From a virus: a stretch of DNA of 32,000 nucleotides. Under the pieces are notes generated by a model. It was given only the letters and a program-made list of their open reading frames with translations. It had not been told where the DNA came from and searched no databases. Location of the stretch: IMG/VR virus record IMGVR_UViG_3300031576_000027, positions 46,962 to 78,961 of that record. One strand, given 5' to 3'. This document shows, one piece after another, positions 1,173 through 29,592 of the stretch; the stretch's first letter is position 1; every line of letters starts with the position of its first letter. A program made the position numbers and the translations under genes.

Positions 1173-1294
1173 GATCCAACCCTAACGACCCATCTACTTC
1201 CCAACCCGGCCCGGCGTCACACCCGGTCGGTCAGCTCCGTGGGCGCGCACGCCTCTAGGGTTAGGATCCCGGGCGCGCCGGGTCCGGGTTGGGG
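1173..1294. promoter_or_regulatory. Interleaved imperfect inverted repeats with AACCC/GGGTT cores, upstream of the replisome-organizer gene (operator or origin-like)
   Basis: A1 gatccaaccctaac (1173-1186) pairs with A2 ctagggttaggatc (1255-1268). B1 cccaacccggcccgg (1200-1214) pairs with B2 ccgggtccgggttgggg (1278-1294). Each pair matches apart from a 1-nt indel. The order is A1-B1-A2-B2. Confidence 0.4.
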
Positions 1295-1303
1295 TTTCTC
1301 CCA

Positions 1304-2200
1304 ATGCCCGCTCCTCTCCGTTGGTGCAAGTTGTGGTTCGACATCCTGGAGGACTCCAGGACATGCGACCTGCCACCTGATCACTTCAAAGCGTGGATCG
1401 CCTGCCTGATACTGGCCGGCGAGAACCGGATGTGCGGTTGGTTTGAGCCGCGCCTGTTTGCTTGGCGCCTGCGCCTGGCGGACCCTGGCCCCACGCTGGC
1501 CGCCCTGGTGGACCGTGGACTGGTCACCATGACAGCCGACCCACCACGGATCACGGTGGTGCAGTGGAAAAGCCGGCAAGGCGGCGTGGCGCGCAGTGCC
1601 GCGTTCCGTAACGGGTTCTCGGTCGGTGTGACGGACGTAAAACGTCGGCGCGACGGCAGTGCAACGCCTGTGTCACGTAAGAGGGAGAGGGAGAGGGAGA
1701 GGAAGATAGTACAGCAAGAGGTACTACCTTCGTCGCAGCCTGCGGCTGCGACCCGACGCGAACCCAGCCAGGAGGCCCGGGATGTCGCCTGCTATCTGGA
1801 ACAGGCGATCCTGTCCCACAGCCCGACCGTCAAGACCCGGCCAGACCTGTGGGCGCGCGAGATCGACCTGGCCATCCGTGTGGACGGCCGGACACCCGAA
1901 CAGCTGCGGCGGGTGGTGGACTGCGCGCACCGCAGCACCACGGACACCTTCTGGCGCTCCAACCTGCTGTCGGGCATGAAGTTGCGCGAAAAATTCGACG
2001 TGTTGTGGGTCCGCGCGAATGCGGGCGCCAAGCCGGCGGCCAGCGGTTACCGCGGGGTGGGGCCACGGGAGATCATGGAAATGGCGCGCCAGTCGCGCGC
2101 CCAGGAGGAGGCGGCAGGTGACCAAGACGGACGGACTGGAGATCGCGGCAATGCTGAGGGCGCTGTATCCCAACGGAAACTTCCCATCGGAGACGGCTGA
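1304..2200 (+). CDS. Replisome organizer / replication initiation protein (Phage_rep_org_N-like N-terminus, DnaD-like C-terminus)
   Basis: The N-terminus LRWCKLWFDILEDSRTCDLPPDHFKAWIACLILAGENRMCGW...ITVVQWKSRQ fits the W-x-K-x-D-x-F-x-D...W...LAG...W-x-K-x-Q pattern of replisome organizers. The C-terminus contains TPEQLRRVVDCAHRSTTDTFWRSNLLSGMKLREKFDVLW. ATG 1304 is preferred over TTG 1289. Confidence 0.7.
   Translation: MPAPLRWCKLWFDILEDSRTCDLPPDHFKAWIACLILAGENRMCGWFEPRLFAWRLRLADPGPTLAALVDRGLVTMTADPPRITVVQWKSRQGGVARSAAFRNGFSVGVTDVKRRRDGSATPVSRKRERERERKIVQQEVLPSSQPAAATRREPSQEARDVACYLEQAILSHSPTVKTRPDLWAREIDLAIRVDGRTPEQLRRVVDCAHRSTTDTFWRSNLLSGMKLREKFDVLWVRANAGAKPAASGYRGVGPREIMEMARQSRAQEEAAGDQDGRTGDRGNAEGAVSQRKLPIGDG
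1679..1705. repeat. Hexanucleotide (GAGGGA)n microsatellite inside the replisome-organizer gene
   Basis: The sequence is aagagggagagggagagggagaggaag, encoding the RERERERK linker. It lies in a locally lower-GC stretch (about 1620-1735) with short hairpins (gacgtaaaacgtc; tagtacagcaagaggtacta). Confidence 0.8.
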
Positions 2201-3233
2201 CCTGTACGCGAGCCTGATCGGTGATCTGGACCGCCAGGCGGTGATCCGGGCGATCCGGCGGCGCGTGCTGTCCGACCCGTCCGGCTTCATGCCGACGATC
2301 GGGGAGATCCGGCAGGCCGTGGCCGCTGACCGGGTGCAGCTGCCGGACCCGGAGATGGCCTGGGGGATCGTCCTGGCCGAGATCCGGCGGACCGGCTACT
2401 CGGGCACACCGGCCTTCGCGGACACCGCGATCGCGGACGCGGTCAAGATCATGGGCTGGGCCGACCTGTGCTCCAGCGACAACCAGGTGGCGGACCGCGC
2501 GCACTTCCTGCGGATCTACGGCGCGGTGAGGGACCGCGCCATCCAGGCGGCCAATCTCGCCGGGCGTCCGGACCTCGCGCTGCCGGCCCTGCAACAAAGG
2601 AGAACGCCAAATGCTAGAGACGGACACGTGCAGGCACTGCGCACGCCTGTTGCCAGTCCTGCAACGAAGGAACCCGAACCGATTGTACTGCAGCCAGGCA
2701 TGCAGCCGGGCAGTCCAGAAAGCGCGCTGGCACGAGAGGAACCCGAAGTCAATCAGACCCCGCACGACGGTGGGGACGATTCACGAACTGGTTGTGGCGA
2801 CCGCGTTGCTTCGTCAAGGGTGGGACGTGTTCTTGGCCCTCGGGCAGACGGCATCAGCGGACCTGGTTGCGGTGGGCGGGCGGATACGGCTAACGATCGA
2901 AGTTCGTACCGCCCAGCGGAAAGCGAGCGGCGGCTTGTCGTGGACGAAGAACGGACCAGACAGGGCGAAGCCGGACCACTACGCGGCCGTGGCGAAAGAT
3001 GGCACGATTCTATACGAGCCACCGTTGCCAACGTTAGCCGGGCGCTAAATGCGACGAGAGGAAATGAGGCCGCCACCAAGCCCGAGCCCGATCCGCCGCG
3101 CGCAGCCACGGGGCAGCAGTCAACGAATTCGGGTAAGTCCTGGGCGGATCCCGGAGGGCCGTTGCCGGCAGACGTCGTGGACCAGGCGAACGCGCGGGCC
3201 AAGGCCGTATCTGGCACGGATGGTGCGCCGTGA
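2118..3233 (+). CDS. G39P-like helicase loader ORF; the recognisable domain covers only about 2118-2590 and the rest of the ORF reads through an embedded foreign segment
   Basis: GTG 2118 follows aggaggaggcggcag. LEIAAMLRALYPNGNFPSETADLYASLIGDLDRQAVIRAIRRRVLSDPSGFMPTIGEIRQA fits the 'loader and inhibitor of G40P' pattern. GC3 is about 92% up to about 2590 and about 50% over 2611-3048. The stop TGA 3231-3233 overlaps GTG 3230 of the next gene. Confidence 0.45.
   Translation: MTKTDGLEIAAMLRALYPNGNFPSETADLYASLIGDLDRQAVIRAIRRRVLSDPSGFMPTIGEIRQAVAADRVQLPDPEMAWGIVLAEIRRTGYSGTPAFADTAIADAVKIMGWADLCSSDNQVADRAHFLRIYGAVRDRAIQAANLAGRPDLALPALQQRRTPNARDGHVQALRTPVASPATKEPEPIVLQPGMQPGSPESALAREEPEVNQTPHDGGDDSRTGCGDRVASSRVGRVLGPRADGISGPGCGGRADTANDRSSYRPAESERRLVVDEERTRQGEAGPLRGRGERWHDSIRATVANVSRALNATRGNEAATKPEPDPPRAATGQQSTNSGKSWADPGGPLPADVVDQANARAKAVSGTDGAP
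2590..3060 (+). mobile_element. Possible inserted mobile segment (free-standing or intron-like homing endonuclease cassette) within the loader ORF
   Basis: Codon bias and GC content change abruptly at about 2590 and about 3050. The segment carries its own RBS and a nuclease ORF in a different frame from the surrounding ORF. Confidence 0.3.
2611..3048 (+). CDS. Zinc-finger + PD-(D/E)XK endonuclease (Hjc / I-Ssp6803I-like, homing-endonuclease-like)
   Basis: A strong RBS (caaaggagaacgccaaATG) precedes the start. The N-terminus has CRHC...YCSQAC. The nuclease core is GTIHELVVATALLRQGWDVF...ADLVAVGGRIRLTIEVRT (E...D...E-x-R/K). GC3 is about 76% in this frame against about 50% in the overlapping host frame. 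Confidence 0.7.
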   Translation: MLETDTCRHCARLLPVLQRRNPNRLYCSQACSRAVQKARWHERNPKSIRPRTTVGTIHELVVATALLRQGWDVFLALGQTASADLVAVGGRIRLTIEVRTAQRKASGGLSWTKNGPDRAKPDHYAAVAKDGTILYEPPLPTLAGR

Positions 3234-3436
3234 TCATGAGCGGCCTGGTGATCCTGTCGGTCGGGGCCAATCTGGTCCTGTTGGGGCAGTGGATCCGGTC
3301 GCTGGACCGGGCGGCGCGGATCAGGGCGCTGGAGGACGAACTGGAGCGCCACGAGGTGTTGGCGGCCCTGGGGGCGGACGCTGGCGTCAGGCCGTTTCAA
3401 GTCCTGCGGGTGAGGTCAACGGTGATCGAACGATGA
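3230..3436 (+). CDS. Small membrane protein (one N-terminal TM helix plus a coiled-coil-like tail)
   Basis: GTG 3230 sits in a GTGA overlap (ATG 3236 is an alternative start). The hydrophobic stretch is SGLVILSVGANLVLLGQW. The stop overlaps the next ATG (ATGA 3433-3436). Confidence 0.55.
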   Translation: MIMSGLVILSVGANLVLLGQWIRSLDRAARIRALEDELERHEVLAALGADAGVRPFQVLRVRSTVIER

Positions 3437-3900
3437 ACCAGACGCGGATCAAGGTTGCGACCGGGTTCGCACTGCGAATCGGCAGCGGGTTTGCCGTAGT
3501 TGCTGTCCTGGCGACGCGCGGCGCCGAGATGGGTGCGGCGGCGGGCATGCTGGTGTCGTTGTGGGTGGCCGGCGTGATGGTCGAGGCCCACGACTACCTG
3601 ATGGCGCTGGTCCGCAAGGATCACCTGCGGGTGCCGCGACCGCCGCGCTACGGCGATCCGATCATGCTGGACCCGGACGCCTCGGCGCAACTGCGCGCCC
3701 TGGACGCCGAGCATGCCGCGATCAACGCCTCGATCCAGGGACTGGCAGACCGCATGACCACCGTGATCCAGCGGCGGCAGCAGTGGTGGGATGTGGTGTG
3801 CCTGCGGCACAAGTTGGATCCGCAGATGGACTGGACCGCGCTGCCGACCGCGGACGGCCAGTACGTGGTCCGACAGGAGATCCCGGGGGACAAGCCGTGA
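3433..3900 (+). CDS. Hypothetical membrane protein (two predicted TM helices)
   Basis: ATG 3433 sits in an ATGA overlap. The hydrophobic segments are FALRIGSGFAVVAVLA and AAAGMLVSLWVAGVMV. The stop overlaps the next GTG (3897). Confidence 0.55.
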   Translation: MNQTRIKVATGFALRIGSGFAVVAVLATRGAEMGAAAGMLVSLWVAGVMVEAHDYLMALVRKDHLRVPRPPRYGDPIMLDPDASAQLRALDAEHAAINASIQGLADRMTTVIQRRQQWWDVVCLRHKLDPQMDWTALPTADGQYVVRQEIPGDKP

Positions 3901-5660: not shown

Positions 5661-6455
5661 ATGCCGCAGAAGGTGCCAGGCCGGGTGCCCTTCGGTCGCC
5701 CACGCGATCGCGTGCCCCGCATGCCGGACATGCGGACGAGGCAGGACCGGCAGGCAGCTAAGGCGGTAGTGGCGCTGGGAGCCAAACCGGCCTGCGATGT
5801 CTGCGGGCGGACCTTCCCGTCGCTGGGCGCCGTCAACAACCACCGCGGGCGCTGGGTCTGCCAGGTCACGATCGCGGACCAGCAGTTGCGCCAGGACGGC
5901 TGGGTGCCGTGCCCTGAGCACGGCGCGCTGCCCGGGATCCGGTGGACGATCTACTGGCGCGGCTGGCTGCAGGCGGACTTCCCAGCTGGGCCCCGCGTCC
6001 GCCGCAACAAAGGCGGCACCCAGTTGTGGGTCACGGGCGTGGGCGAGGATCCTGCCGATGTCGCCTGGGGGATCCGGGTGCTGATGCTGCGACAGACCGC
6101 AGACCGGCTGTCGCGCCAGATCAGGAACAACTGGGCCACGCCAAACAGGCTGCCGACCCGCTGGGAGATGAACGCCCTGTACCACGATGCGGAGCCGATC
6201 AACGCGACACCGGACCCCATCACACCCTGCCGTTCGGCGTTGTCCCGCATGGCCCCGAATGGGCGTGGTGGCGAGGCTGTGAACGAGATCGTGGAGGCAG
6301 TCTACCCGCTGCGTTTGGGGCAGGCCGGCCTTGGTGGCCTGGTCCCACCGCCCGAGGCGTGGCACCAATGCCTGGACCTGCTGGACGGCTTCCGTAAGGT
6401 GCTGCGCCGTGCGGCGCCGCGCGGGAGCGAGGATCTGGAGGACGACGAGACATGA
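5661..6455 (+). CDS. Hypothetical protein with a C2H2/C2HC-like zinc-finger motif
   Basis: Start is ATG 5661 (GTG 5655 in a GTGA overlap is an alternative). The motif is CDVCGRTFPSLGAVNNHRGRWVC. The stop overlaps the next ATG (6452). Confidence 0.5.
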   Translation: MPQKVPGRVPFGRPRDRVPRMPDMRTRQDRQAAKAVVALGAKPACDVCGRTFPSLGAVNNHRGRWVCQVTIADQQLRQDGWVPCPEHGALPGIRWTIYWRGWLQADFPAGPRVRRNKGGTQLWVTGVGEDPADVAWGIRVLMLRQTADRLSRQIRNNWATPNRLPTRWEMNALYHDAEPINATPDPITPCRSALSRMAPNGRGGEAVNEIVEAVYPLRLGQAGLGGLVPPPEAWHQCLDLLDGFRKVLRRAAPRGSEDLEDDET

Positions 6456-6685: not shown

Positions 6686-7197
6686 TGTTCCGCGTCCTGA
6701 TCCCCGGCGATCCCGTCCCGCAGGGCCGCGGCCGGATCGTGCGCATCAAGGGCTTCGCGCGGATCGCGGACCCGTCCCGCAGTCGCAACTGGAAGGCGAT
6801 GGCGCAGTGGCACATGGCCAAGGCGATGTCGGACGCGCAGATCCGGGCGCCGCTGCAGGGCCCGCTGGAAGTCACGATCGAAGCCGTGCTGCGCTGCCCC
6901 AAGACCGACCACCGCAAGCGCGCACCACAGCCGCGGCGGTGGCACCAGGGGCGGCTCGACAGCGACAACCTGGCCAAGTCGGCTCTGGATGCCGGCAACG
7001 CCGTGCTGTGGATGGACGACGGCCAGGTGGCCGTGCTGCGTGTTCGCAAGATCATCGGACGCCAGGGCGAGGCGCCGCACCTGCTGATGCTGGTGCGCGA
7101 ACTGCCGGCCGTGCCGCACGACGAAGGTACGCCCAAGGAATGCAGCTGCAAGGAACGCCCGGGCGGATACTGCCCGGCACACGGGAGCCCACCCTGA
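6685..7197 (+). CDS. rusA: RusA-family Holliday junction resolvase (endodeoxyribonuclease RusA)
   Basis: IPGDPVPQGRGRIV...LEVTIEAVL...GRLDSDNLAKSALDAGNAVLWMDDGQVAVLRVRK shows the typical RusA motifs (PxxKxRPR-like, DxDN, DDxQ). The stop shares a base with ATG 7197. Confidence 0.8.
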   Translation: MFRVLIPGDPVPQGRGRIVRIKGFARIADPSRSRNWKAMAQWHMAKAMSDAQIRAPLQGPLEVTIEAVLRCPKTDHRKRAPQPRRWHQGRLDSDNLAKSALDAGNAVLWMDDGQVAVLRVRKIIGRQGEAPHLLMLVRELPAVPHDEGTPKECSCKERPGGYCPAHGSPP

Positions 7198-9518
7198 TGG
7201 CACAGACCGCACGCAAACGACAGCCCAAGGCAGCGCCACCACCGCCACCGGCATCGGTACCCACCGAGGTCATCGCGACGCAAGGCACGGAGGACCAGCC
7301 GCGCTGGACCGACTACATCCCGCTGTCGGGCCTGCGCCCGCACCCCAAGAACGAGGGCGTGCGCGATCACGACCTGGGCGTGATCCACGGGTCCATCGGG
7401 GAGCACGGCTACGGCAGTCCGATCGAGGTGGACGAACGGACGGGCCTGATGGTCGCCGGCCACGGCCGCCGCAAGGCGCTGCTGCAGATGCGCGACGCCA
7501 AACAGGACCCGCCGGACGGGGTGATCCGCGCGCCGGACGGCGACTGGATGGTGCCGGTTCAGCGCGGATGGCGCAGCCGGTCCGACGCCCAGGCCATGGC
7601 CTACCTCATTGTCAACAACCGCTCGCAGGAACTGGGCGGCTGGAAGGACGACGGGCTCGCGGAGGTGCTCCAGCAGTTGGCCCAGCAGGACGCCCTGATC
7701 GGAACGGGCTACAGCGCGGACGACGTCGCGGCGCTGCTGTCCCGCGTCGGCGGGCCGCCCAAGCTGGGCGCGCACGCCGGCAAGTTGCGCGAGAAGTTCC
7801 TGGTCCCCCCGTTCAGCGTCCTGGACGCCCGGCAGGGCTACTGGCGCGAGCGGCGGGAGGCCTGGATCAGCCTGGGCATCCAGTCCGAACTGGGCCGCGA
7901 CGCCAAGGCGTTCACGACGCAGGCGCAGATGGCCGACGGCAGCACCTTCTACGACTACACGGGCGTGTCCATCTTCGACCCGGTCCTGTGCGAACTGGTC
8001 TACCGGTGGTTCGCCCCGCCCGGCGCCGTCGTCCTGGATCCCTTCGCAGGCGGGTCGGTGCGCGGCGTCATCGCCGCGGCCTGCGGGCACCAGTACTGGG
8101 GCATCGACCTGCGGGCCGAGCAGGTCGCGGCCAACAAGGCCCAGTGGGGCAAAATCAAGCCCCTGGCCGCCGAGATCGCCCAGGCGCCGGTCGCCCAGGA
8201 TGCCACGGACAATGCCGTCCCGACTACGCCGATCGAGCGCCGCGGGCAAGTCTGGATCAAGCGCGACGACCTGTTCGCGATCGCCGGGGTCCGCGGCGGC
8301 AAGGTCCGCACGTGCTGGACGCTGGCCCAGGGCGCCAAGGGCCTGGTGACCGCCGGCAGTCGGCAGTCCCCCCAGGTCAACATCGTCGCCCACGTCGCCA
8401 AGCGCCTGGGCATCCCCTGCCGGGTCCATGTCCCAACCGGCAAGCCGACCCCGGAACTGCAGGCGGCGGCACAGGCCGGCGCCGACGTCGTGCCGCAGAC
8501 GCCAGGGCACAACAGCGTGATCATCAAGCGGGCCCGCGACGACGCCAAGGCGCGGGGCTGGCGCGAGATCCCGTTCGGGATGGAGTGCATCGAGGCCGTG
8601 GCGGCAACGTCCACCCAGGTGGCGGCGCTGCCAGACGGCTGCAAGCGGATCGTGGTGCCGGTCGGGTCCGGCATGACGCTGGCCGGGATCCTGACCGGCA
8701 TGCAGAAGGCCGGCGTCAGCCTGCCTGTGCTGGGGGTCGTCGTCGTGGCAGACCCGGCCGACCGCCTGGACAAGTGGGCCCCCAAGGGGTGGCGGCAGCG
8801 GGTCAAGTTGGTGCCGGCGGGCCAGGACTACCACGACCCGGCGCCGGTCACGGTCCTGGACGGGCTGCAGCTGGATCCCATCTACGAGTCCAAGTGCATC
8901 CCGCATCTCAAGCCGGACGATCTGCTGTGGTGCGTCGGCATCCGGCAGACGGCGGACGCGCGCGCAGCCGGGCAGGCACCGGTCCACGACCCCACCTGGA
9001 TCGTCGGGGCGTCCCCCGGCGCGGTTGGCGCCAAGGGGATCCCGGACGCCGACCTGGTCTTCACCTGCCCGCCCTACCACGACCTGGAACGGTACAGCGA
9101 CGACCCGGCGGACCTGTCCGCCATGTCCTGGGACGACTTCCGGGACTTCTACCGGGAGACGATCGTGGTGGCGGCCGCGCGCCTCAAGCCCAACCGCTTC
9201 ATGGCGATCGTCGTGGGCGAGATCCGCGACGGGCGCGGGCTGTACCGCAACCTGGTCGGCCTGACGATCGACGCGGCGATCGCGGCCGGGCTGGCCTACT
9301 ACAACGAGGCCATCCTGGTAACGCCGATCGGATCCCTGCCGCGGCGCATGGGACCGTTCAGCGCCTACCGGAAACTAGGGAAGACCCATCAGCAACTGCT
9401 GGTCTTCTACAAGGGCACCGACCCCAAGAAGCTGCAGCCGATCTTCGGGGACGTCGTGGTCCCGGAGGAGGCGTTGGTGCTGGCCGCGGTCGCCCAGGGG
9501 GACAAGGCAGATGGCTGA
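7197..9518 (+). CDS. ParB-like N-terminal domain + N6/N4 DNA methyltransferase, interrupted by an inserted PLP-dependent (ACC deaminase / D-cysteine desulfhydrase-like, fold type II) domain
   Basis: The ParB domain is LRPHPKNEG...GHGRRKA (about 7300-7560). MTase motif I is DPFAGGS (8037-8057). The PLP domain spans about 8218-8950: IERRGQVWIKRDDLF..RGGKVRT (Lys codon 8301-8303), VTAGSRQSPQ and VPVGSGMTLAG (8664-8678). MTase motif IV is TCPPY (9063-9077). The C-terminus is ...NEAILVT...RKLGKTHQQLLVFYKG. Confidence 0.8.
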   Translation: MAQTARKRQPKAAPPPPPASVPTEVIATQGTEDQPRWTDYIPLSGLRPHPKNEGVRDHDLGVIHGSIGEHGYGSPIEVDERTGLMVAGHGRRKALLQMRDAKQDPPDGVIRAPDGDWMVPVQRGWRSRSDAQAMAYLIVNNRSQELGGWKDDGLAEVLQQLAQQDALIGTGYSADDVAALLSRVGGPPKLGAHAGKLREKFLVPPFSVLDARQGYWRERREAWISLGIQSELGRDAKAFTTQAQMADGSTFYDYTGVSIFDPVLCELVYRWFAPPGAVVLDPFAGGSVRGVIAAACGHQYWGIDLRAEQVAANKAQWGKIKPLAAEIAQAPVAQDATDNAVPTTPIERRGQVWIKRDDLFAIAGVRGGKVRTCWTLAQGAKGLVTAGSRQSPQVNIVAHVAKRLGIPCRVHVPTGKPTPELQAAAQAGADVVPQTPGHNSVIIKRARDDAKARGWREIPFGMECIEAVAATSTQVAALPDGCKRIVVPVGSGMTLAGILTGMQKAGVSLPVLGVVVVADPADRLDKWAPKGWRQRVKLVPAGQDYHDPAPVTVLDGLQLDPIYESKCIPHLKPDDLLWCVGIRQTADARAAGQAPVHDPTWIVGASPGAVGAKGIPDADLVFTCPPYHDLERYSDDPADLSAMSWDDFRDFYRETIVVAAARLKPNRFMAIVVGEIRDGRGLYRNLVGLTIDAAIAAGLAYYNEAILVTPIGSLPRRMGPFSAYRKLGKTHQQLLVFYKGTDPKKLQPIFGDVVVPEEALVLAAVAQGDKADG

Positions 9519-22120: not shown

Positions 22121-22135
22121 GATACCGTCACAGTC

Positions 22136-24334
22136 ATGGGCGTGCTGGACAACCTGCGGTCGCTGTTCGGTGGTGGGGCATCAAACGGCGCAGGTGCGCG
22201 GCCCGTGGGCGCGACGGAGCGGACGTACGAAGGGCTGCGCAGTCGGATCAGCAAGTCGGCCGGCGACGCACAGCCGGCGTCGCGTCAGCTGCCGGACGAG
22301 TTCGCGACCCTCTACGCGGCGGGCATGGCCATCGAGCCGCCGTACGACCCGGAGCGGCTGCTGGTAGCTGCGGAGACAAACGAGGTCCACAGCGCCTGCC
22401 TGTTGGCCAAGGCGACGGACAGCGTTGGGCGCGGCTGGGAGTTCACGTCCGACGACGAGCAGGCAGCAGCCGAACCAAAGGACGCCGTGGTCGCGGCGCT
22501 GGAGGACATCTGCCCGGACTACACCTTCCAGGAACTGCTGCTGCAGGCGGCCTGGGAACTGGTGACGATCGGGTACTCCGGGTGGGAGGTAGTGCGCAAC
22601 CAGGACAAGACGATCGGCGCGGCCTACCCGATCCCGGCCCACACCCTGCGCGCCACGCGGTCCCCGGACATCTTCGTCCAGGTGCGCAACGCACAGGTCC
22701 GGTACTTCAAGCGGTTTGGAGTCGAGCGCACGCTGGACGCGATCACTGGCGAGTGGTTGTCGGATCAGGCCGCCGCGGCACTGACGCAGGACGCCCTGGA
22801 CCAGCCGCAGGGCAGCGTGTTCGGGATGCCGTCCGGTCTGGCCAGGCAGCCCGATCATGCCCCCGCCAGCGAGTTGATCACCTTCCGCCGCTACAGCCCG
22901 CGGTCCACGTTCTACGGGATGCTGGACTACATCGCCGGCATGCCGACCCTGGCCGAGTACGCGGCCAATCGGGACTACAACATCAGCTTCTACGAAACGG
23001 CCGGCGTCATGTCCAAGTTGGTCTTCCTGTCGTCGGACGTGCCCATCCCTGAGGTGGTCAACGAGATCGACAAGACCCTCAAGGACGCGCGCGGACGGCA
23101 GCACACCAACATGGTCGCGGAGCTTCCGGGCACGGCAAAGGTCCAGGTGGAGGATCTGGCGGTCGCCCCGCGCGAGCAGGGCTTCAAGGAGCGCCGGTTG
23201 GCGCTGGTCAAGTCCATCATGGTGGCCCACAGCGTCCCGCCCTACCGGATCGGCTACGCCGAACTGGGATCGCTGGGCGGATCCGCGGCGTCCGAGATGA
23301 TGAAGGCGTACCGGCACGGCGTGGTGGAGCCGATCCAGACGACGATCGAGCACCGCCTGGGCAAGACGCTGTTCGGTCCCGCCGGCTACAACCTGCAGGG
23401 CTGGGCCTTCACGCTGGCCGACCTGGACTGGGAGGAGACGGAACTGTCCCTCAAGATCGCGACCGAGTCCGTCAAGCTGGCGATCCTGTCCCCCAACGAG
23501 GCGCGGGCGGAACTGGGCCGCGACCCGGACGACGACCCCAACATGGACCGGAAGTACATGAACGGCCAGCCCATCGACACGGGCCTGGGCGCGCGGTCCG
23601 CGGAGGAGGTCGTGCGCACGCTGCGCGGGGAGGTCGCGCGCGCCATCCAGTCCGGCAAGCCCAAGCCACAGCAGCCGCAGCCGCTGCCGGTGGACACGGA
23701 GGTCCAGGTGCCGGCGGCCGCCAAGGCGCAGGCCAAGACCAACGGCAAGGCGCCGCTCAAGCTGCCGGCCAAGGTCGCCAAGGACGATCGGCCGCTAAAC
23801 CCGCAGGTCCCGACGTTCGGGCAGCCCGGCGCGAAGGTCGTCCTGGTCGGCCTGTGCCCGGGGAGTCAGGACGTCGATGCCGGCAGTCCGATGTCGGGCT
23901 ACGAACTGGACACCCTGGTGCACCGCTATCTGGACCCGCTGGGCCTGGGGCTGAACGAGGAGGACGTGGCGATCGTCATGGCCGTGCCTGAGATCACCCG
24001 GGACATCGTGGGCGAGCCGTGCAACCCGACCGACGCCGACCTGAACCGCTGGCAGCCGTGGCTGCACGGCGAGATCCGGCGCCTGGGCCCCGGCCTGGTC
24101 GTGGCGCTGGGTGACCTGCCGCGGCGGGCGCTGGGTGAACTGGGGCACGCCACCGTGATCCCGCCCGCACAGGCCCACGCCAAGCCGGAACTGGCCGATA
24201 CCCTCACGCGCCAGCTGGACGAAGTCCGCGGGATGCTGACTGAGCGCAAGGCGCGCGAGATGCTGGGGCACGGCCCACTCGGGAAGCGGGTCCGCGTGCT
24301 GGCCAACGGCAATGACGTGGACTCGCAGCACTAA
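22136..24334 (+). CDS. Portal protein fused to a C-terminal uracil-DNA-glycosylase-superfamily-like domain
   Basis: The portal core spans about 22136-23560 (YFKRFG..., FYGMLDYIAGMPTLAEYAANRDYNISFYETAG, VPPYRIGY...). A Pro/Gln/Lys/Ala-rich linker spans about 23560-23800. The UDG-like part spans about 23801-24334: VVLVGLCPGSQDVDAGSPMSGYELDTL...CNPTDADLNRWQPWLHGEIRRLGPGLVVALGDL. Confidence 0.8.
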   Translation: MGVLDNLRSLFGGGASNGAGARPVGATERTYEGLRSRISKSAGDAQPASRQLPDEFATLYAAGMAIEPPYDPERLLVAAETNEVHSACLLAKATDSVGRGWEFTSDDEQAAAEPKDAVVAALEDICPDYTFQELLLQAAWELVTIGYSGWEVVRNQDKTIGAAYPIPAHTLRATRSPDIFVQVRNAQVRYFKRFGVERTLDAITGEWLSDQAAAALTQDALDQPQGSVFGMPSGLARQPDHAPASELITFRRYSPRSTFYGMLDYIAGMPTLAEYAANRDYNISFYETAGVMSKLVFLSSDVPIPEVVNEIDKTLKDARGRQHTNMVAELPGTAKVQVEDLAVAPREQGFKERRLALVKSIMVAHSVPPYRIGYAELGSLGGSAASEMMKAYRHGVVEPIQTTIEHRLGKTLFGPAGYNLQGWAFTLADLDWEETELSLKIATESVKLAILSPNEARAELGRDPDDDPNMDRKYMNGQPIDTGLGARSAEEVVRTLRGEVARAIQSGKPKPQQPQPLPVDTEVQVPAAAKAQAKTNGKAPLKLPAKVAKDDRPLNPQVPTFGQPGAKVVLVGLCPGSQDVDAGSPMSGYELDTLVHRYLDPLGLGLNEEDVAIVMAVPEITRDIVGEPCNPTDADLNRWQPWLHGEIRRLGPGLVVALGDLPRRALGELGHATVIPPAQAHAKPELADTLTRQLDEVRGMLTERKAREMLGHGPLGKRVRVLANGNDVDSQH

Positions 24335-27967: not shown

Positions 27968-27981
27968 GATCTAGTGGTGGC

Positions 27982-29592
27982 ATGAGCGTTCGCGCCGCGC
28001 CACCGGACAGTGGGCTTGCCGTCATCCTGCCGATCCCCAAGGCGCTCGCAGACCAGCTGGCGCTGGCCGACGTGGACGGCGCGACGCCGGCCGACGAGAT
28101 GCACGTGACGCTGGCCTACTTGGGCAAGGTCCAGGATCTGCCGACCGGGGCAGCTGCGCTGATGGAGGCCGTGGTGGCGGACTGCGCCAAGGCCCATCCG
28201 CCGGTTGCCGGTCTGGTGTCCGGCTGGGGCCGCTTCAACGCCAGCGCCAGCAGCGAGGGTCGCGACGTCATCCACCTGTCGTTCGACAGCCCGGGCCTGG
28301 CCGACCTGCGCGCGGACCTCGTGCGGCGCTTGGACGACGTGGGGTTGCCGATCAAGCGCGACCACGGCTTCGACCCGCACATCACCCTGGCCTACGTGCA
28401 GGCCGGTCGGCCCGTGCAGTTGGAGGTGGACACGTTCCCCGTGACGTGCGGCGAGATCCACGCCACCGCCTGGTCGGCCATGTTCCGACTGGCCAGCGCG
28501 TACGCGCTGGCGGGCGCCGTCGCAAAGCGCGCGGACGACCCCGTGCCCGTCGGGAAGCCGTTCGCCGGCTTCACCGACTTCGCGGACTGCGTGGCCGGCA
28601 ACCAGGACAAGGACGATCCCGAGGCGTTCTGCGCGTGGCTGCAGACGCAGGCCGGCGAGAAGACCAAGGCAACCTTCACCACCACCGACCTGGCGTCGGG
28701 TGGACGCATCGCACCGCAGCAAGGGCTCAAGCCCGCAGGGCACGCGCGCGGCGGCAAGCCGTACTGGCTGCCCAGCGAGGTGCCCGACGAGGACAAGGAG
28801 CGGCTGGCCAAGATGCTGGACACCAACCGCGACCAGGCGATGACGCACCTGGACCAGATGGCCAAGGCAATGGCCGGCGACACCAGCGACCGCTGCGCGT
28901 TCTGCAACGGCGTGGGGCACTACACCTACACGTGGGGCGATCGTGGCGCGCGCATGCTGACCTGCGCCCCGCATCGCGACATGGCGCACCGGATCACGCA
29001 CTGGTTCCAGACGGCAGCCACCGAGTACCGTTGGCCCGAGAAGGACGCGCTGCCTTCGACCGTCCCCGATCCCGCGGAAGAGGATCAGCGGATCCAGCCG
29101 GGTCCTGGCGCGGGCCACGCGATCCCGGAGGGCGACGAGGAGGAGGGCGTGTCGATGGCCAAGGCCGCGCCGGCAGCTGCGGCGGCCGCGGGGCCCAAGC
29201 AGGCCACCGCGATGCGCGTGATCAAGGCGCTGCAGGAGCAGCGGTACACGCTGTCGGTCGCCTACCCGGCCAACCAGATCGACGCGCACAAGGACTTCGC
29301 GACGGCGGCCCAGGTCGAGGAGACGGCCTGGGAGTACGCCAAGGGCGGGCGCAAGATCGGCCTCATGCACCGCAAGGGGACGGACGGCGCGGGCACCGTC
29401 GTGGAGTCCTACATCTACCGCGGACCGGACTGGCACATCGGCGGCGAAACGGTCAAGGCGGGTGACTGGCTGCTGGGCGTGATCTGGTCGGAGAACGCCT
29501 GGAACATGATCAAGGGCGGCGCCTACACGGGCCTGTCCATCCAGGGCTACGCGCGCAAGAAGGCGGCGGCGGCACGGCAATCGGCGGCCTGA
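27982..29592 (+). CDS. 2H phosphoesterase (LigT / 2'-5' RNA ligase-like) + Cys/His cluster + XkdF-type putative prohead protease fusion
   Basis: There are two H-x-T-x motifs: HVTL (28102-28113) and HITL (28378-28389). The central cluster is CAFCNGVGH...CAPHRDMAH. The C-terminal XkdF-like region (about 29241-29560) reads RYTLSVAYPANQIDAHKDFATAAQVEETAWEYAKGGRKIGLMH...VVESYIY...GDWLLGVIWSENAWNMIKGGAYTGLSIQG. Confidence 0.75.
   Translation: MSVRAAPPDSGLAVILPIPKALADQLALADVDGATPADEMHVTLAYLGKVQDLPTGAAALMEAVVADCAKAHPPVAGLVSGWGRFNASASSEGRDVIHLSFDSPGLADLRADLVRRLDDVGLPIKRDHGFDPHITLAYVQAGRPVQLEVDTFPVTCGEIHATAWSAMFRLASAYALAGAVAKRADDPVPVGKPFAGFTDFADCVAGNQDKDDPEAFCAWLQTQAGEKTKATFTTTDLASGGRIAPQQGLKPAGHARGGKPYWLPSEVPDEDKERLAKMLDTNRDQAMTHLDQMAKAMAGDTSDRCAFCNGVGHYTYTWGDRGARMLTCAPHRDMAHRITHWFQTAATEYRWPEKDALPSTVPDPAEEDQRIQPGPGAGHAIPEGDEEEGVSMAKAAPAAAAAAGPKQATAMRVIKALQEQRYTLSVAYPANQIDAHKDFATAAQVEETAWEYAKGGRKIGLMHRKGTDGAGTVVESYIYRGPDWHIGGETVKAGDWLLGVIWSENAWNMIKGGAYTGLSIQGYARKKAAAARQSAA

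Follow-up and report, generated by a model that had tools for sequence, protein, structure and literature searches.

The window analyzed here is a stretch of 32,000 nucleotides (nt) of the IMG/VR virus record IMGVR_UViG_3300031576_000027 (positions 46,962 to 78,961). It is 69% GC and is part of a tailed-phage contig from a cave metagenome. Within the reading frame of a putative G39P-like helicase loader lies a second, complete gene in another frame, encoding a putative 145-amino-acid (aa) nuclease of the PD-(D/E)XK kind. The nuclease gene is real, the insert is missing from the rest of the loader family, the loader frame is open throughout, and intron signatures are absent. The layout is probably that of a free-standing nuclease cassette (~2592-3048) inside the loader gene, with the loader read straight through and no splicing. 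The parts of the locus are as follows.

2118..2591, + strand: conserved domain (residues 1-158) of the putative G39P-like helicase loader, based on homologues, a family profile, an AlphaFold2 (AF2) model, and the codon change point at 2592.

2592..2610, + strand: left junction of the cassette with its Shine-Dalgarno site (AAAGGAG, 2596-2602), based on a change point at 2592 in codon usage and in GC content at third codon positions (GC3).

2611..3048, + strand, +1 frame relative to the loader: putative nuclease gene, 145 aa, based on homologues, conserved motifs, sequence and fold matches in the PDB, and codon usage.

2592..3047, + strand: loader-frame read-through of the cassette, a predicted unstructured junk peptide of 152 codons with no stop, an off-frame log-likelihood ratio (LLR), and a low predicted local distance difference test (pLDDT) score.

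3048..3233, + strand: last 61 loader-frame codons and TGA, a candidate native tail, based on a GC content of 0.69, a best-frame score, and a stop beside the next start.

The nuclease open reading frame (ORF) is preceded by the Shine-Dalgarno sequence AAGGAG at 2597-2602, 8 nt ahead of ATG 2611. An earlier note on this DNA, made from the sequence alone, had reported this ribosome-binding site and the 145-aa ORF, and both are present. The protein has an N-terminal CxxC...CSxxC zinc finger followed by a PD-(D/E)XK-like core (E59, D84, E97-V-R99). A search of 5.8 billion proteins returned the homologues P0002 (142 aa, E 3e-19) and P0003 (136 aa, E 7e-13), which share 36-40% identity with it across 92% of its length. 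The alignment of the three sequences has no substitution at C7, C10, C27, S28, C31, E59, D84, E97, or R99, which bears out the zinc finger and E...D...ExR/K core first read from the single sequence. A metagenome scan added two relatives, L009 and L010. Position 99 is Arg in the window nuclease, P0002, P0003, and L010, and L009 has the canonical E-V-K; in L010, the zinc finger is replaced by another N-terminal region. Among family collections, PHROGs gave a match to phrog_5018 (E 9e-7), NCBIfam gave none, and P0002 carries a weak precomputed match to PF11645.

The resemblance to I-Ssp6803I and Hjc proposed in the earlier note was recovered by two routes. In a profile-to-sequence search of the PDB, I-Ssp6803I (2OST) ranks first (E 0.07), with the nuclease core aligned to its D...Q-V-K. 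In a Foldseek search with the nuclease model, four 2OST chains rank first to fourth (probability 0.93-0.99) and Hjc resolvases fifth to tenth; probabilities across ranks 1-10 are 0.77-0.99, yet the E-values are only 0.01-0.7. Hjc is a reported relative of I-Ssp6803I and is its next-best fold, as it is for the nuclease here (PMC3384342). The two proteins are also of similar size, ~145 aa. They differ in that the window nuclease carries the extra N-terminal CxxC...CSxxC zinc finger, has Arg for the motif Lys, and is free-standing within a phage protein-coding gene. Close homologues of I-Ssp6803I are generally encoded by cyanobacteria (PMC3384342). The sparsely populated I-Ssp6803I-like family would gain a zinc-finger-bearing, E-x-R variant branch. 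By these matches, the nested ORF reads as a genuine, conserved PD-(D/E)XK-type nuclease gene of the I-Ssp6803I/Hjc kind.

Over 2611-3048, codon usage is better in the nuclease frame than in the other two forward frames, and the score of the nuclease gene is the lowest among the real genes scored in this phage. Its relatives are found in unrelated gene contexts on contigs of 46-62% GC, one of them adjoining a RelE-like toxin gene. The scattered relatives, the gene's own ribosome-binding site, and the off-type codon usage fit a free-standing selfish nuclease. Most likely, this is a horizontally acquired selfish gene of the homing-endonuclease type, with homing as its presumed activity.

One of the relatives has a setting of its own. 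P0002 is encoded in a lysis-like module, on the opposite strand to and 1.2 kb from an HNH_3 endonuclease gene. Its contig (L001) thus has two selfish-type nucleases, at 626-1126 and 2381-2809, within 3 kb.

The composition of the loader frame switches at the cassette. GC at codon positions 1/2/3 is 0.69/0.50/0.92 over 2118-2589 and 0.74/0.60/0.53 over 2590-3048; in the nuclease frame (2611-3048), it is 0.60/0.53/0.75. These values agree with the GC3 counts made earlier by hand (about 92%, 50%, and 76%, respectively). Overall GC is 0.71 before the switch, 0.62 in the segment, and 0.69 again over 3049-3233. A per-codon LLR of native coding usage against -1 off-frame usage was calculated for the loader frame. 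It is +0.56 over 2550-2591, -0.44 to -0.56 over 2592-3047, and +0.42 to +0.56 over 3048-3230. The best change points in codon usage are 2592 and 3066, with the right edge at ~3048-3066. Therefore, the foreign segment comprises the ribosome-binding site and the ORF; it is ~456 nt (152 codons) long and in phase.

Three further features near these boundaries were considered and set aside. A 21-nt direct repeat (2581-2601 and 2651-2671, 18/21 identical) has one copy spanning the junction and ribosome-binding site and the other inside the nuclease ORF, and each copy encodes LP(A/V)LQ..RR.PN in its own reading frame. As a mark of the junction it is unsupported: the Markov-shuffle P is 0.007, but 3/35 real phage windows score equally. 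The heptamer TGCCGGC occurs at 2581-2587 and 3163-3169, 582 nt (194 codons) apart, and encodes Leu-Pro-Ala in the loader frame both times. It was rejected as a target duplication bounding a 582-nt insert, since the loader frame already reads as coding over 3048-3161 and chance alone would give a match of 7 nt. Lastly, a 283-aa ORF from ATG 3049 (3046-3900), in the nuclease frame directly after its TAA, is a high-GC artifact with a codon score of -0.46; it runs into a real gene at 3433 (3433-3900).

The loader frame begins at GTG 2118 or ATG 2151 and has no stop until TGA 3231-3233, giving a product of 371 aa from the GTG. The source annotation puts the start at ATG 2151; for most homologues, the alignment begins at residue 1 of the GTG product. 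The sequence upstream of GTG 2118 is AGGAGGAGG. As the earlier note had it, the terminal TGA overlaps a GTG at 3230; the source annotation prefers ATG 3236 as the start of the next gene.

A profile of the loader family (A2, 40 members) matches the N-terminal domain of SPP1 G39P (PDB 1NO1) at E 1.1e-5 over profile positions 1-78. The single loader sequence is a weak match to G39P, with E 0.069 for PF11417 (below the Pfam threshold) and E 0.002 for phrog_2289. Because the family profile matches 1NO1 and the gene follows a DnaD-like replisome organizer, the G39P-like loader label is reasonable at the family level. In SPP1, gene 39 likewise comes after gene 38. Unlike G39P, the loader family here has a second conserved helical subdomain (residues 80-150).

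An exhaustive HMMER search returned 2,386 loader homologues. Among the top 150, lengths run from 128 to 272 aa with a median of 181 aa, and the closest, P0004, is 182 aa with 55% identity. Alignments are confined to residues 1 to ~160 of the 371-aa product, with a few extending to ~200. No homologue in this set aligns with the loader-frame peptide across the cassette, and none covers residues 190-371. Homologues lacking the insert, which the earlier note asked for, are abundant: it is absent from all ~2,400 and also from 25 IMG/VR loci and from the loci L007 and L008. Loader ORFs at the 25 IMG/VR loci span 154-301 aa, including tails of 3-90 residues. Their stop usually overlaps or abuts the next start, as GTGA or ATGA in 9/25. 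The AF2 model of the loader product agrees with this division. Residues 1-150 form a confident helical domain (pLDDT 94-98), and residues 160-290 have a pLDDT of 40-60. A helix at 289-318 (pLDDT 74-82) straddles the right junction of the cassette, and a short C-terminal helix is found at 351-365 (pLDDT ~84).

The loader copy at L007 is insert-free and frameshifted. It has the highest local identity (61%), but covers the domain only partly. This copy (5780-6310 of a 46.7-kb contig) is split by the frameshift into calls of 79 aa and 100 aa, and the many short gene calls around it suggest long-read assembly errors.

Taken as a cassette, the insert would consist of its own ribosome-binding site and the gene for the zinc-finger/PD-(D/E)XK nuclease. 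It would have entered the non-conserved, tail-coding part of the loader gene, directly after the 158-residue conserved domain. Since the insert is in phase and stop-free, loader ribosomes would run through it. Starting at 2118, they would make the conserved domain, then ~150 unstructured and unselected residues, and then the terminal ~60 residues, stopping at TGA 3231-3233. The nuclease would be translated separately from ATG 2611 on the same mRNA, in the +1 frame. Loader ribosomes crossing the nuclease ribosome-binding site may also damp nuclease expression, by analogy with a suggestion made for the T4 seg and mob genes that share a short overlap with the ORF upstream (PMC2988022).

Several observations weigh against this reading. 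The canonical catalytic Lys is replaced by Arg in this nuclease subgroup, and the match to PF11645 (PDDEXK_5) is below the gathering score (14.6 vs 26.1 bits, E 0.034). The AF2 model of the nuclease is modest, with a mean pLDDT of 61.6 and 64-80 in the core. The nuclease GC3 (0.75) is equaled by some presumably native genes, so composition alone is no proof of recent acquisition. The coding score of 3048-3230 is intermediate; it falls short of the 5th percentile for true coding windows and is about that of the best frame of putative non-coding gaps. Finally, no close phage relative, and no insert-free allele with precise junctions, was found in INPHARED (DNA and protein), IMG/VR (with the loader, nuclease, and both neighboring genes as queries), GTDB genomes, or the SRA/Logan index. 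The sole match in INPHARED is the loader of a distant Moorella phage. In SRA/Logan, the sequence occurs only in one or two DNA runs of one cave metagenome, and the Logan contigs of the cave run show no variant or joint.

The open loader frame is less surprising than it looks. The earlier note put the chance of an open frame over the overlap at around 1%, which is wrong and overstates how improbable it is. When the codons of the nuclease ORF were permuted synonymously, with the protein and codon usage fixed (20,000 trials), the loader frame stayed stop-free in 21% of permutations (P ~0.2). Among native genes of the phage, 62% of 146-codon windows are open in the same shifted frame. Counting every + frame of the window, stretches of 146 codons lack a stop in 27% of cases, and stretches of 210 codons in 18%. 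The last 61 codons (3048-3230) are open in 39% of first-order Markov randomizations, which keep dinucleotide frequencies. For an insertion to be both in phase and stop-free, the prior is ~1/3 x 0.21, or ~0.07. This value is compatible with chance, or with the survival only of insertions that spared the tail or translational coupling. The nested layout is unusual and probably accidental. Of the mobile cassette read through by the loader, as the earlier note proposed it, the real nuclease, its addition to the loader gene, and the read-through hold, and the argument from improbability does not. The sequence observation is thus real and partly confirmed, and its interpretation is partly supported.

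The last 61 loader-frame codons bear on how the loader gene now ends. The only start-type codons after 3048 in this frame are TTG 3162 and GTG 3177, so an independent start here is implausible, as had been noted before. With the loader gene left out of the training set, 3048-3230 scores 31.7 bits in the loader frame vs 1.5 and -27.9 in the other two, and the loader frame beats shuffles at P 0.005-0.036. Tests of homology gave little. BLASTP of the tail against 149 homologues found no significant homology. Smith-Waterman comparison with 141 family tails gave P 0.035 for the mean score and 0.2 for the top-10 mean, and junk segments scored alike. A tail hidden Markov model found no significant signal in the six-frame translation of the window. 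These tests lack a significant signal because the family tails are too variable.

A possible, though less probable, course of events is an insertion of the cassette at the original end of the loader gene, or just beyond it, that removed the native stop. The loader frame after 2592 would then be accidental, and 3049-3233 would be a spacer or the 3' flank of the cassette. Frames this long are often open here (P 0.21 for the overlap and 0.39 for the last 61 codons), and many family members terminate 3-30 residues past the conserved domain. The tail's lack of detectable homology to family tails and its gap-like coding score also suit this account. On the other side, the loader frame is clearly the best of the three in 3048-3230, the LLR changes directly after the nuclease stop, and GC returns to the genome level. 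In addition, the stop directly adjoins the following start, an arrangement shared by most relatives. A native length of ~215 aa would fit the family range and the 214-position profile of phrog_9804. The balance leans modestly toward a native loader tail being retained in the last ~60 residues.

It is doubtful that selection keeps the loader frame open, for the C-terminal tail or for coupling to the next gene, which would make the 438-nt overlap truly dual-coding. This idea draws on the ~0.07 prior for an in-phase, stop-free insertion and on the family-wide habit of placing the stop beside the following start. Gene coupling is pervasive in this phage, and the RNA of 3040-3235 is unusually unstructured (z +2.5). 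However, an event with a prior of 0.07 is hardly rare, and the open frame is why this case was chosen. Relatives on which constraint could be tested are lacking, and throughout the overlap, codon usage in the loader frame appears entirely off-frame.

Less probable again is that the nuclease is a long-resident replication or recombination gene of the phage, such as an Hjc-like resolvase, that is not mobile and arose by old overprinting. Hjc resolvases are among its fold matches, the gene is located in the replication module, and its GC3 is inside the range of some native genes. Against this, the phage already encodes RusA (source gene table), and no other loader homologue has the nuclease gene beside it. 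The relatives of the nuclease are dispersed over unrelated gene neighborhoods, and no real gene scored here has a lower codon-usage score.

The earlier note also offered an intron-like element that is spliced out. In a more specific form, the segment would be a group I-like, self-splicing intron with the nuclease ORF inside it, excised from the loader mRNA. I-Ssp6803I is itself a homing endonuclease and is intron-encoded, as that note stated. Homing-endonuclease genes (HEGs) that interrupt phage genes are often borne by introns (PMC10448857). In this case, no Rfam family, intron models included, matches at E<=10 over 2000-3700 or 2540-3260, only 19 nt separate the segment edge from the nuclease ORF, and the flank on the downstream side has coding character in the loader frame. 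The RNA folds less stably than its dinucleotide shuffles, with z of +1.2 (2570-3240), +2.3 (composite of the non-ORF parts), and +2.5 (3040-3235), and a range of +0.76 to +2.5 over all tests. On these sequence grounds, an intron is very improbable and is rejected, and nothing appears to be spliced. An intein is rejected too, as the nuclease is out of frame (+1) with the host gene and no Hint-type domain was found; Pfam found only the weak G39P match in the loader-frame translation.

Two observations on RNA structure stand apart. The RNA of 3040-3235 is markedly less structured than its dinucleotide shuffles (z +2.5), and for control coding windows, z lies between -2.2 and +1.5. A hairpin sequestering the nuclease ribosome-binding site was considered and dropped because the structure is not significant.

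HEGs are known in phage genomes between genes, in introns, in inteins, and at sites of gene splitting (PMC2988022, PMC10448857). The arrangement here is strictly none of these, and the literature searched gave no account of a fully nested, read-through layout. The nearest cases are in T4-like phages, where free-standing HEGs (mobE, segC, segF, mobA, mobC) overlap an upstream ORF by 1-24 base pairs (bp), and this overlap is thought to damp translation of the endonuclease (PMC2988022). As with the T4-like seg and mob genes, a small nuclease gene with its own start is in or beside an essential replication gene and is co-transcribed with it. In contrast to their overlaps of 1-24 bp, the whole 438-nt nuclease gene is here inside the host ORF, and it encodes a PD-(D/E)XK enzyme rather than a GIY-YIG or HNH one.

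Genes in pieces are a second comparison. The mobE gene splits nrdA of Aeromonas phage Aeh1, and mobA is found in the T4 topoisomerase genes 39/60 (PMC2988022, PMC10448857). These also have a HEG within an essential phage coding sequence with no intron or intein. The host gene there yields two separately translated polypeptides, whereas here there would be one read-through polypeptide with no stop or restart. The locus may, with low probability, represent a fourth route besides the intron, the intein, and gene splitting, in which a HEG occupies a disordered tail and selection keeps the frame open over 438 dual-coding nt. If the layout is more than an accident, selfish nuclease genes could colonize essential genes through tolerant disordered segments, without splicing machinery. 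The locus also shows what gene callers can overlook in high-GC phages: in the source annotation, this region is a single 360-aa "hypothetical protein," and the nested nuclease gene is missing.

The same sequence is found on a 78,981-bp ENA contig and on a 26,952-bp Logan contig. Nearly all genes are on the + strand and tightly coupled, and the source gene table has many overlaps of 4 nt and 1 nt. The genes on either side of the loader are as follows.

1289..2200, + strand: putative replisome-organizer/DnaD-like gene, matching phrog_2514 (DnaD-like helicase loader, 1.4e-13) and phrog_391 (replication initiation O-like, 5e-13).

3230..3436, + strand: downstream small gene with a GC3 of 0.88 and a positive codon score, starting at GTG 3230 or ATG 3236.

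The replisome-organizer gene has a GC3 of 0.76. Its stop (2198-2200) is beyond the loader start at GTG 2118, so the two genes overlap by 83 nt. No terminator was found between the genes, and no DnaB-type phage helicase gene was seen adjoining the loader. The source annotation begins the downstream small gene at ATG 3236, not at GTG 3230.

Farther downstream, the window has genes for a terminase, a portal, a Mu-F-like protein, and an XkdF protease. Directly after RusA, 7197-9518 encodes a 773-aa protein with a DNA methylase domain (N6_N4_Mtase) and a PLP-dependent enzyme domain (PALP). The portal protein (22121-24334, 737 aa) has a C-terminal domain of the uracil-DNA-glycosylase superfamily (PF03167, E 1.9e-8). 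The gene at 27970-29592 encodes a 540-aa fusion of an N-terminal 2'-5' RNA ligase/LigT-like domain and a C-terminal XkdF-type phage protease domain.

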